DNA of 64,000 nt from Escherichia coli (GCF_022846255.1 NZ_AP025682.1); one strand, 5' to 3'; positions 22,149 to 37,715 are shown, counted from the stretch's first letter. Notes: generated by a model not told the origin, from the sequence alone. Program-made: numbers and translations.

Positions 22149-23348
22149 GTGGAAAGGTTTGATGCCATTATTATAGGCGCTGGTGCGGCAGGTATGTTCT
22201 GTTCTGCGCTGGCAGGTCAGGCAGGACGCCGGGTTCTGCTGATCGATAATGGTAAAAAACCAGGGCGCAAAATCCTCATGTCTGGCGGTGGGCGCTGCAA
22301 CTTTACCAACCTTTATGTCGAACCGGGCGCTTATCTGAGCCAGAATCCGCATTTTTGTAAGTCTGCACTCGCGCGTTTTACCCAGTGGGATTTCATTGAT
22401 CTGGTCAATAAACACGGCATCACCTGGCACGAGAAAACGTTAGGGCAACTCTTCTGCGATGACTCCGCGCAGCAGATTGTCGACATGCTGGTGGATGAGT
22501 GCGAGAAGGGCAATGTGACCTTCAGATTGCGTAGCGAAGTGCTGAGTGTGGCGAAGGATGAAACAGGCTTCACGCTTGAACTGAACGGCATGACTGTCGG
22601 TTGCGAAAAGCTGGTCATCGCGACCGGTGGGCTGTCAATGCCGGGGCTGGGCGCATCGCCGTTTGGTTATAAGATTGCCGAACAATTTGGCCTCAACGTG
22701 CTGCCGACCCGCGCGGGCCTGGTGCCATTCACTCTGCATAAACCGTTGCTCGAAGAGTTACAGGTGCTGGCGGGCGTGGCGGTGCCTTCCGTGATTACCG
22801 CTGAAAACGGCACCGTTTTCCGTGAGAACTTACTCTTCACCCACCGCGGCTTATCTGGACCGGCGGTGTTGCAAATTTCCAGCTACTGGCAACCGGGTGA
22901 ATTTGTCAGTATCAATCTGCTACCGGATGTGGACCTCGAAACCTTCCTGAATGAGCAGCGTAATGCACATCCGAATCAGAGCCTGAAAAACACACTGGCG
23001 GTTCATCTACCGAAGCGGTTGGTTGAACGTTTACAGCAACTCGGGCAAATCCCGGATGTTTCGCTAAAACAGCTCAACGTGCGTGACCAACAGGCACTGA
23101 TTAGCACATTGACCGACTGGCGCGTACAACCCAACGGCACTGAAGGCTATCGTACTGCTGAAGTGACGCTCGGCGGCGTGGACACCAACGAACTCTCTTC
23201 ACGGACGATGGAAGCGCGCAAAGTGCCTGGGCTGTACTTCATCGGCGAAGTGATGGACGTCACCGGCTGGCTGGGGGGCTATAATTTCCAGTGGGCGTGG
23301 TCGAGTGCGTGGGCTTGTGCGCAGGATTTGATTGCTGTTCAAAGATAA
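22149..23348 (+). CDS. yhiN: FAD-dependent oxidoreductase YhiN (HI0933-like); last 4 codons supplied by the inserted element
   Basis: 399 aa, GAGAAG dinucleotide motif; GTG start. Confidence 0.85.
   Translation: MERFDAIIIGAGAAGMFCSALAGQAGRRVLLIDNGKKPGRKILMSGGGRCNFTNLYVEPGAYLSQNPHFCKSALARFTQWDFIDLVNKHGITWHEKTLGQLFCDDSAQQIVDMLVDECEKGNVTFRLRSEVLSVAKDETGFTLELNGMTVGCEKLVIATGGLSMPGLGASPFGYKIAEQFGLNVLPTRAGLVPFTLHKPLLEELQVLAGVAVPSVITAENGTVFRENLLFTHRGLSGPAVLQISSYWQPGEFVSINLLPDVDLETFLNEQRNAHPNQSLKNTLAVHLPKRLVERLQQLGQIPDVSLKQLNVRDQQALISTLTDWRVQPNGTEGYRTAEVTLGGVDTNELSSRTMEARKVPGLYFIGEVMDVTGWLGGYNFQWAWSSAWACAQDLIAVQR
23331..23335. repeat. 5-bp target-site duplication (ATTGC), right junction of Tn7-like island
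   Basis: attgc immediately before terminal tgt; identical attgc at 37711-37715. Confidence 0.6.
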
Positions 23349-23441
23349 TAAAGTTGTGCCCTAAGCATTAAAGTTGTAACCACTCTCAAAAAATGACGCT
23401 AATGTTGTATACCTAATAAATGTGTGGTTAGGTTGTAGACT
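23336..23441 (+). repeat. Right-end array of four TnsB-binding-site-like repeats
   Basis: tgttcaaagat-aataaagttgtgccc, aaagttgtaacc, aatgttgtatacc, aggttgtagact; recalled Tn7-R motif is TGT-N8-ACAAAATAGTTGGGAAC. Confidence 0.55.
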
Positions 23442-23478
23442 ATAAAACACACATGCAGGTACGCATCAATGACGTTTT

Positions 23479-24334
23479 GTGGATACGATCATGGCTAGGG
23501 GCAGGCATCTTAAATCCTATCTGGATTATGAGAATGCGCTAGGTGACGGCATAGGGTTGGGCTATGGACAAAGTTATCAACCTTGGCTTAGAGCCCAGGA
23601 CGTTAGATCCCACGGAAACCGTTCGATAGTCTTTGGCCTTAAATCGTTTCGGAATCACCATTTTTTTCTTCTGTCGAAAGTAACTTTTTCTACCTAGCTG
23701 AGTTTAATGACTCGATGATCGATATCCGCGAACAATTCCCACTCATACCTCTACTGCTCACCCAACAGATAGCCAATCACTTAAATGTGCATCATCCGCT
23801 TGTTAGGGGGGGGGCAGAGGCGCACCAGTCGATATCCTGAATGTTATGACAACTGATTTCTTGCTGACCTTGAGAATGCCTAGAGGGGGGATTCGATACA
23901 AAGCAATTGCAGTAAAGCAAAACGAAAGCATACCTAAACGCGAAGCAGAAAAGCTTGAGATAGAGAGAATGTTTTGGCAACTGATTGATGTTGAGTTCCA
24001 AATCTATACGGGTTCGGAACTAAATCATGTTGCGGGGCAGAACATATATTGGGCTACCTCGGTGCTGAGAGATGGGGCTGAGTTTTATGATAAATACCCG
24101 CTTGATAAAATTTTATGGAGGCTTAAGCCGGATGTTTATCCGATTGTGGAACTACGCGCGGCGATCTCATCAGTCTTTGATGTCGATGAACAAGAAGCAA
24201 TGATGTTATTGCAGGCTATTATTGGGTTAAAAATGATAAATGTGGATCTATCGTATACCATTCTCGAAACAGGTCTGATAAAAATAATTTCCAATGGTTA
24301 CTGCATAGGCCTGAACGCAAATGGATATTATTAG
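23479..24334 (+). pseudogene. tnsA: tnsA-like (Tn7 transposase endonuclease subunit) gene disrupted by two frameshifts
   Basis: Three frames together read ...YQPWLRAQDVRSHGNRS..RNHHFFLL / ..DIREQFPLIPL..HHPLVRGG / VDILNVMTTDFLL..LEIERMFWQ.., collinear with recalled TnsA. Confidence 0.7.
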
Positions 24335-24969
24335 AAATTCAGTATGGTAATCTCATGACAGCGACGTGCTATCTGACGGGCTTTATCGCGTTTTGGATTT
24401 TGACAGAAATACCGATTTGTTGATTTTATTTGAAATAAAAAAGAAAGGACGAGTAAACCAATTCCATTCTCTCTTTCACAATTTACATATGGTGTGGATT
24501 CTCAACGAATAACCTGTAGGAAATATATCACCCCCTCATATTTGTTGATTGATGAGGAAAATATAACTAATGAAGACAGGAAACGGCGGGGTACGAATTA
24601 TAATATTATTAAAGAACTTGTAGAAGATAGAATGTTCATATTCAATTATGCATTTCATAAAAATCTCATTTATCGACAGAGTATTCTGGGAAAAAACAAA
24701 TCCCACAGCGTACTATCAGGACACTTCTGACTCTTTACTGGAAGTATGGGCAGGATATATATGCTTTACTGCCCGCATACCCGAACTGCGGTGGAGCAGG
24801 CAAGAGCAGAATCCGGCATGAGGTTAAACTCGGGAACGAAAAGAAAAACAGAATGTTACCTAATATACGCTCAGATGTCTATATCCTTAATGAAGGGGAT
24901 ATAGAAAATATCAGAAAACCTCTGGCCAAGTACCATTATAAACTTCATGGAGAAACGATAAAAAAAACG

Positions 24970-25548
24970 GTGATGCTTCCAATTAGTAGAACATGTATTT
25001 TTCAATGAAGGCCCCGAGAACCTTTTCATGTAGCTCAATTGAGCGTGAAAAGCAGATTGTTTTGCGGGCCAGACGCTTGATGCGGGTTCTCAGCGTCAGA
25101 TTGTTACGCGCAATGCGCTGAGTGAATAGTTTGCCGGTCAGATGCTTTTCCTTAGCGACTTCTCTGGCATAACTTCCCCAGTCGTCGCTCGTTACCATGC
25201 CGATATTAAACGGGGTGAGCAGAGCCAGCAGCTCACGACAGGTTTCATCCGTTCGTGGATCGAACGTATAAGCAAGAACACCACCTGTTTTGGTGTTGTA
25301 GGCATACCAGAGCCAGTGCTGTCGGGCCTTGCTGCCGACAAAGCTCCACTGTTCATCGAGCTCGCAGATGAGCGCGACATCTGCATGAGCGACCGGAGAG
25401 GACGTTATTCTCTTTGGCGCGAGTTTTTTAAAGTGCGGATGACGGTATTTATTCCAATTTTGAGTGTCCTTGCGGTATCGCGGACACCTGCTCCGTTGAA
25501 CGCCATTTCGGTGATTTGCTCTTTGACGCCGGGCTTATGCGTATTTTC
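24970..25548 (-). mobile_element. Truncated IS1-family element (terminal IR plus insB and 3' part of insA)
   Basis: IR ggtgatgcttccaattagtag at 24970; minus strand encodes ...CELDEQWSFVGSKARQHWLWYAY...QRIARNNLTLRTRIKRLARKTICFSRSIELHEKV and ..MAFNGAGVRDTARTLKIGINTVIRTLKNS. Confidence 0.7.
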
Positions 25549-36436: not shown

Positions 36437-36754
36437 ATGATCAAAACTCGTCGGACTAAACGTACCTTTTCCCCGGAGTTCAAACTTGAAGCTATCGAGC
36501 AGGCGGTTAAATACCAGCGTGATGTCAGAGAAGTCGCGCTGGCACTCGAGCTCAACCCTGATCATTTGCGTAAATGGATACGGTTGTATAAGCAGGAACT
36601 TCAGGGTATTGAGCCCGCTGGTAATGCTATTACCCCTGAACAACGCGAAATTCAGCAGCTTAAAGCGCAGATAAAGCTCCCTGAGATGGAAAAAGAAATA
36701 CTAAAGCAAGCTGCCGTGTTGATGAGCAAAATCCCCGGTAAGCTGTCGCGCTAA
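36437..36754 (+). CDS. IS3-family transposase OrfA (HTH)
   Basis: [24 protein letters not shown]..., typical IS3 OrfA. Confidence 0.8.
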
Positions 36755-36780
36755 TCACACGGCTGAAAGTAAAGTGGCCA

Positions 36781-37590
36781 GTGCGGGTTCTTTGTCATTT
36801 ATTCGGTATTCACCGTAGCGTTTATTACATGCTGGTGAAGCGTCCTGTTAATGTGCAAAAAATTGAATTACGAAGTCGGGTGAGGGCTTTCCATGCTCTC
36901 AGTCGTGGCGCAGCCGGTAGCCTAGCATTCAGTCAGATGTTGCGCCAGAGTGGCGTTGATGCAGGCCGGTGGCTGGCACGACGGCTGATGCGGGAATGCG
37001 GGCTGACAGGTCGACAGCCGGTTAAACATCACTACCGGGTAAACGAAGACAAAAGTCCGCCATTGCCAAATATACTGAACCGGCAGTTTAACCCCGCCGC
37101 ACCAGACGCGGTCTGGTGCGGCGACATCAGTTTTATTCGCCTGCAGGACAAATGGTGTTATCTCGCGCTCGTTGTTGATTTATATTCACGTCGGATTATC
37201 GGTTCAGCCCTCCCATTAACCGCTGATGCTGAGTTGGTGTGCAGGGCTTTGCGTAATGCACTGGAAACACGACCGCGTGATGACCGCCTGCTGTTTGATT
37301 CAGAGCAATGTGTTCAGTATAAATGCAATAAATACAGAAAGTTACTCTGGCGTTATGGGGTAATGCAAAGTATGAGTCGCAGAGGGAATTGCCTGGATAA
37401 TTCGCTGATGGAAAGAGTCTTTCGCAGCCTTAAAAGTGAATGGCTTCCGAAAGGTGGTTATGGTGATTTTAGCCATGCGGTACGAGATATAAACCCGTGG
37501 ATTAATGGTTATTACAACGTTTATCGACCTCACACGAACAACGGTGGTTTACCGCCTTGCTTACATGAACAGGTTATCCCGGTGTCCTGA
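36781..37590 (+). CDS. IS3-family transposase OrfB (DDE integrase domain); likely expressed by frameshift from orfA
   Basis: rve domain with ..[10 protein letters not shown].., ..[10 protein letters not shown].., ..[18 protein letters not shown]. Confidence 0.75.
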
Positions 37591-37616
37591 TTTTGTGATC
37601 CACTACAAGTTATATG

Positions 37617-37710
37617 TGCTTGACTTTATGATTTTTTAGTTAAATAGAATAATTGGTGCAACTTTAAAGTCTTTTCTACTTAAAGGATACAACTTTATTG
37701 GCTCTACACA
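37617..37710 (-). repeat. Left-end array of TnsB-binding-site-like repeats, inverted relative to right end
   Basis: Reverse complement reads tgtgtagagcc-aataaagttgtatcc ... ttaaagttgcacc ... ataaagtcaagcac. Confidence 0.55.
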
Positions 37711-37715
37711 ATTGC
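37711..37715. repeat. 5-bp target-site duplication (ATTGC), left junction
   Basis: attgc immediately after terminal aca. Confidence 0.6.

Follow-up and report, generated by a model that had tools for sequence, protein, structure and literature searches.

The 64,000-nucleotide stretch of DNA analysed here (hereafter the window) belongs to Escherichia coli (GCF_022846255.1, NZ_AP025682.1) and carries, between yhiN and yhiM, a 14.4-kb island located at positions 23336-37710. Reading inward from yhiN, one encounters a transposon end (23336..23445, + strand), a pseudogene of the transposition gene tnsA, the beginning of tnsB and fragments of two insertion sequences (IS). These are followed by an apparently intact set of cargo genes (26155-36145), which includes the tib adhesin locus, then by an IS3-family element and a second transposon end on the yhiM side (37608..37710, - strand). 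As detailed below, this island is very probably a non-autonomous remnant of a transposon of the Tn7 family, Tn6230 subfamily.

The attachment-site gene yhiN (22149..23348, + strand) is intact except for its last residues, which were altered by the insertion: the island lies 13 nt 5' of the stop codon, and the C-terminus now reads ...LIAVQR* where the K-12 form reads ...LIAAKSS*. The pentamer ATTGC is found at both junctions (23331..23335 on the yhiN side and 37711..37715 on the yhiM side, neither with an assigned strand), and the first and last bases of the island are TGT (23336-23338) and ACA (37708-37710). The duplication was read in the sequence and compared with K-12, in which the empty site of strain W3110 (...GATTTGATTGCAGCAAAGTCGTCCTGA) carries one ATTGC only, at the meeting point of both flanks. 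When the window is aligned with the W3110 locus using BLAST, positions 22001-23335 and 37711-39498 find a match, the K-12 pentamer being common to both alignments. An initial annotation of this DNA had described a TGT...ACA island inserted in the last codons of yhiN and bordered by two ATTGC copies, and had called in advance for an empty-site comparison with K-12; all of these features are confirmed by that comparison, the junctions being located exactly at 23335 and 37711.

The same boundary is recovered on a larger scale. We searched 5426 complete E. coli genomes. In the unoccupied ones, which number in the thousands, the match to the flank on the yhiN side ends exactly at 23335. The site is occupied in 626 genomes, that is, DNA at the yhiN site covers at least 80% of a query made of the yhiN end and tnsA. 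Three of the occupied genomes (CFSAN061772, FHI_NMBU_11, and 06-00048) were examined in detail, and the junctions of their intact elements, which belong to three lineages (ATTGC-TGT...ACA-ATTGC), are identical to those of the window. Insertion is thus specific for both site (the 3' end of yhiN) and orientation (tnsA side toward yhiN), as is characteristic of the Tn6230 subfamily.

The two ends also bear on the nature of the element, since a 5-bp duplication and TGT...ACA termini with several inward TnsB-type repeats are characteristic of the Tn7 family. The yhiN-side terminus is TGTTCAAAGATAATAAAGTTGTGCCC and the yhiM-side terminus, in reverse complement, is TGTGTAGAGCCAATAAAGTTGTATCC; both align as TGT-N8-AATAAAGTTGT(G/A)(C/T)CC, and a repeat search delimits a 27-nt terminal inverted repeat (74% complementary) at 23336-23362 and 37684-37710. 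Four repeats resembling TnsB sites follow inward on the yhiN side (TAAAGTTGT at +14 and +34, TAATGTTGT at +65, and TTAGGTTGT at +93) and three on the yhiM side (TAAAGTTGT at +14, TAAAGTTGC at +45, and TAAAGTCAA at +83). The 9-mer TAAAGTTGT has four exact copies in the window, both strands considered, three of which are located in the terminal segments and face inward, the terminal copies being equally far from either tip. When one mismatch is allowed, TAAAGTTGT shows no excess over the 64 kb of the window (20 found vs 13.6 expected), so the end-repeat signal lies in the clustering at the termini and in the conservation among relatives, not in the raw count.

In the relatives, the spacing of the end repeats relative to the termini is conserved, and the repeats themselves persist in a lineage only 87% identical, despite diverged spacers. 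They also resemble the terminal repeats published for Tn6230 (left inverted repeat TGTCCGAAGACAATAAAGTTGT and right inverted repeat TGTACACAGACATTAAAGTTGT; PMC13049778). The yhiN-side end of the window agrees with the left repeat at 19 of 22 positions, and the yhiM-side end with the right repeat at 17 of 22; the TGT and TAAAGTTGT blocks are identical and the sequences as a whole similar, not identical. The alignment of the termini and the presence of repeats at both ends had been proposed beforehand, together with a search of other Tn7-like ends for the repeat, and both the diverged relatives and the published Tn6230 repeats bear these proposals out. Judged from their sequence, both ends of the window element are still structurally complete.

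Internal genes tell a different story, one of decay. As initially annotated, the first gene reading inward from the yhiN side is a tnsA homolog (23491..24334, + strand), which was delimited by tblastn, DNA alignment, and Pfam search after frameshift correction, and is a pseudogene. It matches intact relatives with a tblastn E-value of 1e-144, and the FHI_NMBU_11 TnsA protein is fully covered, spread over three reading frames. DNA alignment reveals two lesions: one nucleotide is missing from a T run at ~23664, and a G run at ~23806 has gained two. Once these frameshifts are corrected, the translation contains no in-frame stop, shows 91% amino acid identity to intact relatives, and matches Pfam PF08722 (E-value 2.3e-15), which identifies it as a Tn7-family TnsA. 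As both lesions lie in homopolymer runs, they correspond to either recent inactivation or sequencing errors.

Next comes a 5' remnant of tnsB (24321..24972, + strand), limited to codons 1-219 of 708, which exhibits several frameshifts and is cut by the terminus of an IS1-family element. Only residues 1-219 of TnsB are covered by tblastn, in three frames, leaving the 5' 650 bp of the gene; the window thus lacks the catalytic core. When relatives' proteins were used as queries, no tblastn match to TnsC, TnsD, or orf5 was detected anywhere in the 64-kb window. As tnsC and TniQ/TnsD were not found, the window element is a remnant and not a complete member of the Tn7 family. With tnsA frameshifted, tnsB truncated, and tnsC and tnsD not found, the initial description of a decayed and immobilized element is upheld. 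That description also reported tnsB, tnsC, and tniQ as absent, which holds for tnsC and tniQ/tnsD and has to be amended for tnsB, whose first 219 codons survive (24321-24972).

The IS1-family fragment that interrupts tnsB (24971..25535, - strand; inner boundary approximate) is recognized by its terminal repeat (GGTGATGCTTCC...), intact at 24971 and flush against tnsB, and by the C-terminus of InsB at 24983-25198. It is followed by the remnant of an IS481-family transposase (25516..26145, + strand), of which only the C-terminal part was found by profile search. The junction between the tnsB remnant and IS1 was recovered in no complete E. coli genome searched, and, among these genomes, at least 80% of the island is covered only by 06-00048, in two separate pieces. 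An Rfam search of positions 20000-41000 at the gathering threshold returned no match.

Complete elements at the yhiN site reveal what has been lost. The smallest of the three relatives, in CFSAN061772, is 9.5 kb long and carries tnsA, tnsB, tnsC, tnsD, and orf5, an open reading frame of 308 amino acids. The FHI_NMBU_11 element (~22.6 kb) carries tnsABCD and orf5, then the tib locus, and that of 06-00048 (~32 kb) carries tnsABCD, orf5, toxin-antitoxin genes, and an operon resembling a cyclic oligonucleotide-based anti-phage signalling system (CBASS), followed by the tib locus. Their proteins are homologous to those of Tn7: TnsA matches the Tn7 TnsA structures 1T0F and 1F1Z (E-value 8e-30) as well as PF08722, TnsB matches Tn7 TnsB (7PIK) over its full length in a search of PDB sequences (E-value 1.9e-46; no match to the integrase core, rve, in Pfam), TnsC matches Tn7 TnsC (E-value 9e-39), and TnsD matches the Pfam families TniQ (5e-20) and TnsD (5e-15). 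NCBIfam returned no family for TnsA, TnsB, TnsD, or orf5 of an intact relative, this library apparently lacking fitting models. The Tn7-like architecture initially proposed for the island is therefore well founded, as relatives with identical junctions encode TnsABCD homologous to Tn7.

Two features of these relatives are worth recording in their own right. The orf5 frame, without any NCBIfam match, is conserved 3' of tnsD in every intact element that we examined at yhiN (positions 7195-8121 of the FHI_NMBU_11 locus and 8005-8931 of the CFSAN061772 locus). The CBASS-like operon of 06-00048 (positions 15445-22891 of the locus) encodes SAVED, SMODS nucleotidyltransferase, E1/ThiF-like, and JAB/MPN proteins and is interrupted by IS66.

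The tnsA and tnsB remnants of the window are collinear with intact relatives, at 83-96% DNA identity. They nevertheless represent a tns lineage distinct from those of all complete E. coli genomes searched, the best identity being 95%, with values down to 83% in the tnsB remnant. DNA relatives of tnsA-tnsB are also present in 607 plasmid records, mostly of conjugative plasmids; the window shows ~80% identity to the copies of IncHI2 plasmids and 90.5% to five copies from Salmonella plasmids.

Taken together, these observations indicate that the island 23336-37710 is, in all likelihood, what remains of a Tn6230-type transposon. Neither the element type nor its attachment site is new. In the literature, yhiN is given as the gene at which Tn6230 inserts (PMC10121019; PMC11406308 Table 1, a review that lists the molecular details as not known), in line with the initial annotation, which counted this gene among the reported attachment sites of Tn7-like elements. 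The yhiN/yhiM interval is hotspot #3 of E. coli, occupied only by Tn6230-type transposons (PMC10121019), and a Tn7-like sil/pco element is reported to have transposed into it in the laboratory (PMC8417528). The novelty is modest, and consists of a Tn6230-subfamily element which has the tib virulence locus as cargo and is kept as an immobilized remnant.

The resemblance to Tn6230, whose prototype is carried by the IncHI2 plasmid R478 with sil-cop cargo, extends to the yhiN attachment gene, the 5-bp duplication, the terminal repeats (TGT-N8-(A/T)(A/T)TAAAGTTGT), and the order tnsA-tnsB(-tnsC-tnsD) reading inward from yhiN. By contrast, the window element carries the tib adhesin locus instead of metal-resistance, mcr, or defence genes, its transposition genes are decayed or deleted, and its duplicated pentamer is ATTGC, whereas GCTGC is reported for the Tn6230-like transposons of a Leclercia study (PMC13049778). 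With Tn7, the element and its intact relatives share a heteromeric TnsA+TnsB transposase, TnsC, and TnsD/TniQ (in the intact relatives), TGT...ACA termini with several internal TnsB-type repeats that are more numerous on the tnsA side, a 5-bp duplication, and an orientation that is constant with respect to a conserved host gene. However, Tn7 uses glmS as attachment gene and inserts downstream of it, whereas the window element is inserted within the last codons of its own, different attachment gene; furthermore, tnsE is lacking, and in intact relatives it is orf5 which follows tnsD.

The history of the island may then be reconstructed as follows. By analogy with Tn7, TnsD/TniQ of a complete tnsABCD element would have bound the 3' end of the yhiN coding sequence, which is conserved, and TnsC would have recruited the TnsA+TnsB transposase to this target. 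The transposase would have cut both strands at each end and joined the element to the target with a 5-bp stagger, in a cut-and-paste reaction presumed from the family. Decay would have followed: codon 219 of tnsB became fused to an IS1-family element, an IS1-mediated adjacent deletion most simply accounts for the loss of the 3' part of tnsB, tnsC, tnsD, and any adjacent cargo, as the flush junction suggests, and tnsA would have gained its two frameshifts. The resulting element is unable to move by itself, and could in principle be moved by Tns proteins from a related element.

Several points weigh against this reconstruction. Recognition of yhiN by TnsD is presumed from the family, rather than from observed transposition, and the deletion attributed to IS1 is deduced solely from the flush junction. 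The tnsA frameshifts could be sequencing errors, which would leave the conclusion on immobility unaffected. The distal end also raises a question, due to the IS3-family element located 103 bp from the terminus (36367..37607, + strand; 45-nt imperfect terminal repeats, orfA at 36437-36754 and orfB at 36781-37590). No duplication borders this IS3-family element, GTG being found on one flank and AGT on the opposite one, and its junction is common to all seven genomes carrying tib at yhiN; some inner sequence of the transposon end may have been lost there. Finally, the tns part of the island is more diverged from 06-00048 than is the tib part, so that the two halves need not share one insertion.

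This last point requires a closer look at 06-00048. In this genome, a second, internal distal end is present at 15090-15193 (20809-20912 in reverse complement), which displays 93% identity to the distal end of the window. It closes an intact 19-kb element carrying tnsABCD and the CBASS-like operon, and is followed by the tib module and the outer distal end; it directly adjoins an IS1-family fragment, midway along the latter, and is not followed by ATTGC. Identity between 06-00048 and the window is 83-96% in tnsA and the tnsB remnant, compared with 95-99% in the tib module and the outer end. This divergence gap and the second internal end lead us to conclude that the yhiN site has hosted at least two related elements. 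FHI_NMBU_11, for its part, is an IS3-associated deletion derivative of the 06-00048 structure. We also considered that the 06-00048 structure might have arisen by homologous recombination of an old tnsA copy with a new one, and rejected this explanation because its sequence already diverges from the window in the first 10 bp of the transposon end.

One may wonder, then, whether the window island is a fusion of two stacked Tn6230-type elements, with the proximal end, tnsA, and the tnsB remnant from one, tib and the distal end from an older one, and an IS1-associated deletion between the two. The two distal ends of 06-00048, in direct orientation with the tib module between the inner and the outer one, argue for such a fusion, as does the difference in identity between the tns and tib parts; matching ATTGC copies are not contrary to it, since re-insertion at the same site regenerates the pentamer. 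However, the window shows neither an internal end nor a third ATTGC, and target immunity, which normally discourages stacking in Tn7-like elements (PMC11014353), may act in this family as well. Moreover, the tns genes are decayed in the window and intact in 06-00048, which is more simply explained if 06-00048 gained a younger element. We therefore regard a fusion as possible but somewhat unlikely. The simplest account is that the element seen in the window is the older one, now decayed, which has kept its matched ends and carries tib as cargo, and that 06-00048 later gained a younger element; a single-insertion origin of the window island is likely.

The cargo of the element is dominated by the tib locus, which occupies the center of the island on the - strand. 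The autotransporter adhesin gene tibA (27817..30960) encodes an intact protein of 1047 amino acids, with a beta-barrel (TIGR01414, 440 bits) and heptosylation-target repeats (TIGR04415, 276 bits), 80% identical to TibA of the enterotoxigenic E. coli (ETEC) strain H10407. The adjacent tibC gene (30953..32173) encodes the autotransporter O-heptosyltransferase (TIGR04414, 614 bits for a cutoff of 200), which is 98% identical to its H10407 counterpart. An autotransporter with heptosylation-target repeats thus stands next to a cognate heptosyltransferase of the TibC/Aah type, as defines a tib locus. The length of TibA varies with the number of repeats, from 989 amino acids in H10407 to 1240 in FHI_NMBU_11 and 06-00048.

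The other cargo genes are mostly regulatory. A regulator with a LuxR-type C-terminus (32497..33114) and one of the CaiF/GrlA family (33111..33584), both on the - strand and both identified by profile search and comparison, occupy the positions of tibB and tibD. On the other side of tibA lie a small regulator with a LuxR-type helix-turn-helix (27380..27739, - strand; profile search) and an intact EAL-domain protein resembling cyclic di-GMP phosphodiesterases (26155..26964, - strand; profile search and comparison). Beyond tibD are a tyrosine DNA invertase gene of the FimB/FimE type (33942..34604, - strand; NF007370, 254.5 bits for a cutoff of 221), an AraC/Rob-type regulator (34734..35597, + strand; profile search), and a second FimB/E-like tyrosine recombinase (35594..36145, - strand), whose 210 bits are slightly below that cutoff. 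The initial annotation's adhesin and regulatory cargo can thus be specified as tibDBCA, the EAL protein, the AraC regulator, and the two FimB/E-type recombinases.

A tib module adjoining the distal end and yhiM is rare, as it was detected in only seven of the 5426 complete genomes, in all cases within larger elements. Both tib-at-yhiN genomes that we examined (06-00048 and FHI_NMBU_11) combine the tib module and distal end of the window with an intact tnsABCD set. Our literature search retrieved no paper naming tibA together with yhiN or yhiM.

The reference tib locus is the pathogenicity island PAI tibA (ROD-13) of H10407, with which the window shares a 7.8-kb core (26658-34425) at 92-99% identity, encompassing tibDBCA and the EAL and invertase genes. 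The H10407 core is, however, cut on both sides, by IS66 and IS600, and located near sbcB/sbmC, and no tns genes or remnants of Tn6230-type ends were detected in its surroundings. According to a review, the insertion site of the H10407 island "remains elusive" (PMC7545054). The window module lies within a Tn6230-type element, in contrast to that of H10407, and is also longer, with an intact EAL gene, an intact invertase, the AraC regulator, and the second recombinase. The latter two genes (34734-36145) are missing from the H10407 island, which ends at window position 34425. Since the tib core of H10407 is found in another context, it has moved by other means at least once.

Comparison with H10407 also draws attention to a segment of 277 bp (33739..34015, no strand) located between the invertase gene and tibD, overlapping the 3' end of the invertase, and bounded by the 7-bp inverted repeat TGACCCA/TGGGTCA. 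In H10407 this segment has the opposite orientation, with both flanks collinear with the window. All 13 H10407-type genomes (H10407 and 12 others) carry the inverted orientation, and all seven genomes with tib in the yhiN context carry that of the window; orientation thus tracks lineage perfectly, which documents a single inversion event. The adjoining enzyme therefore accompanies, as expected of a FimB/FimE-type invertase, a segment bounded by inverted repeats and found in both orientations. In H10407, the one genome of its type in which the invertase was inspected, this gene is truncated by IS600.

One match to a sigma-70-like consensus (TTGACA-17-TAGATT, 33748-33776, + strand) is present inside the segment. 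It is directed away from tibDBCA in the window, and would face this operon in the H10407 orientation. In addition, a perfect 19-nt palindrome (ATCTGTTGTTGTCAAAATG/CATTTTGACAACAACAGAT, 33722-33762) spans the left boundary of the segment just upstream of tibD; it is formed only in the window orientation, and its minus strand scores as terminator-like. On these grounds, the segment is a candidate fimS-like phase switch of the tib operon, which is possibly locked in H10407 as a consequence of the invertase truncation. As in the fimS/FimB-FimE system, a FimB/E-family invertase stands beside a short inverted-repeat segment upstream of an adhesin operon, and both orientations exist among genomes. The two systems differ in their repeats, TGACCCA/TGGGTCA here and TTGGGGCCA in fim, and for tib the orientation is known between lineages and the putative promoter comes from one consensus match.

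The cargo could also suggest that the island was placed by its own tyrosine recombinase, or by IS-mediated composite transposition, the Tn7-like features being coincidental, since it contains two tyrosine recombinase genes and three IS remnants and since the 7.8-kb tib core of H10407 resides in a different, IS-rich context without tns remnant; this is hardly credible, as the recombinases are FimB/FimE-type invertases (NF007370) and not integrases, one of them beside a lineage-inverted segment, the IS elements are internal and not terminal, and the boundaries match, to the base, Tn6230-type ends and the junctions of hundreds of tnsABCD-bearing elements, so that the empty-site and end comparisons effectively refute it.

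With the island identified as a Tn6230-type remnant, one may ask where the tib locus came from. A Tn6230-type transposon could have been its original vehicle, in which case the complete ends of the window element would be mobilizable by TnsABCD acting in trans (for example from an IncHI2 Tn6230), together with a phase-variable tib operon. H10407 would then represent a secondary, IS-relocated version, with its switch locked in the expressing orientation by truncation of the invertase. We consider this scenario, taken as a whole, to be unlikely.

Metal-resistance, mcr, and anti-phage defence genes are already catalogued among the cargo of Tn6230-type elements at yhiN. The window shows that a classical virulence determinant of ETEC, the glycosylated adhesin system TibA/TibC, can likewise be borne by this vehicle at this docking site, and it provides the tib island with defined borders, where the H10407 copy lies in an IS-scrambled region. 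It also illustrates a path of decay, in which transposition genes are lost in association with IS elements while both ends and the cargo are kept, and after which the yhiN site can be used again by a related element. The general understanding of Tn7-like elements is unchanged by these results, whose value lies in the annotation and natural history of the tib locus; for ETEC biology, the candidate tib switch may matter more than the transposon remnant itself.

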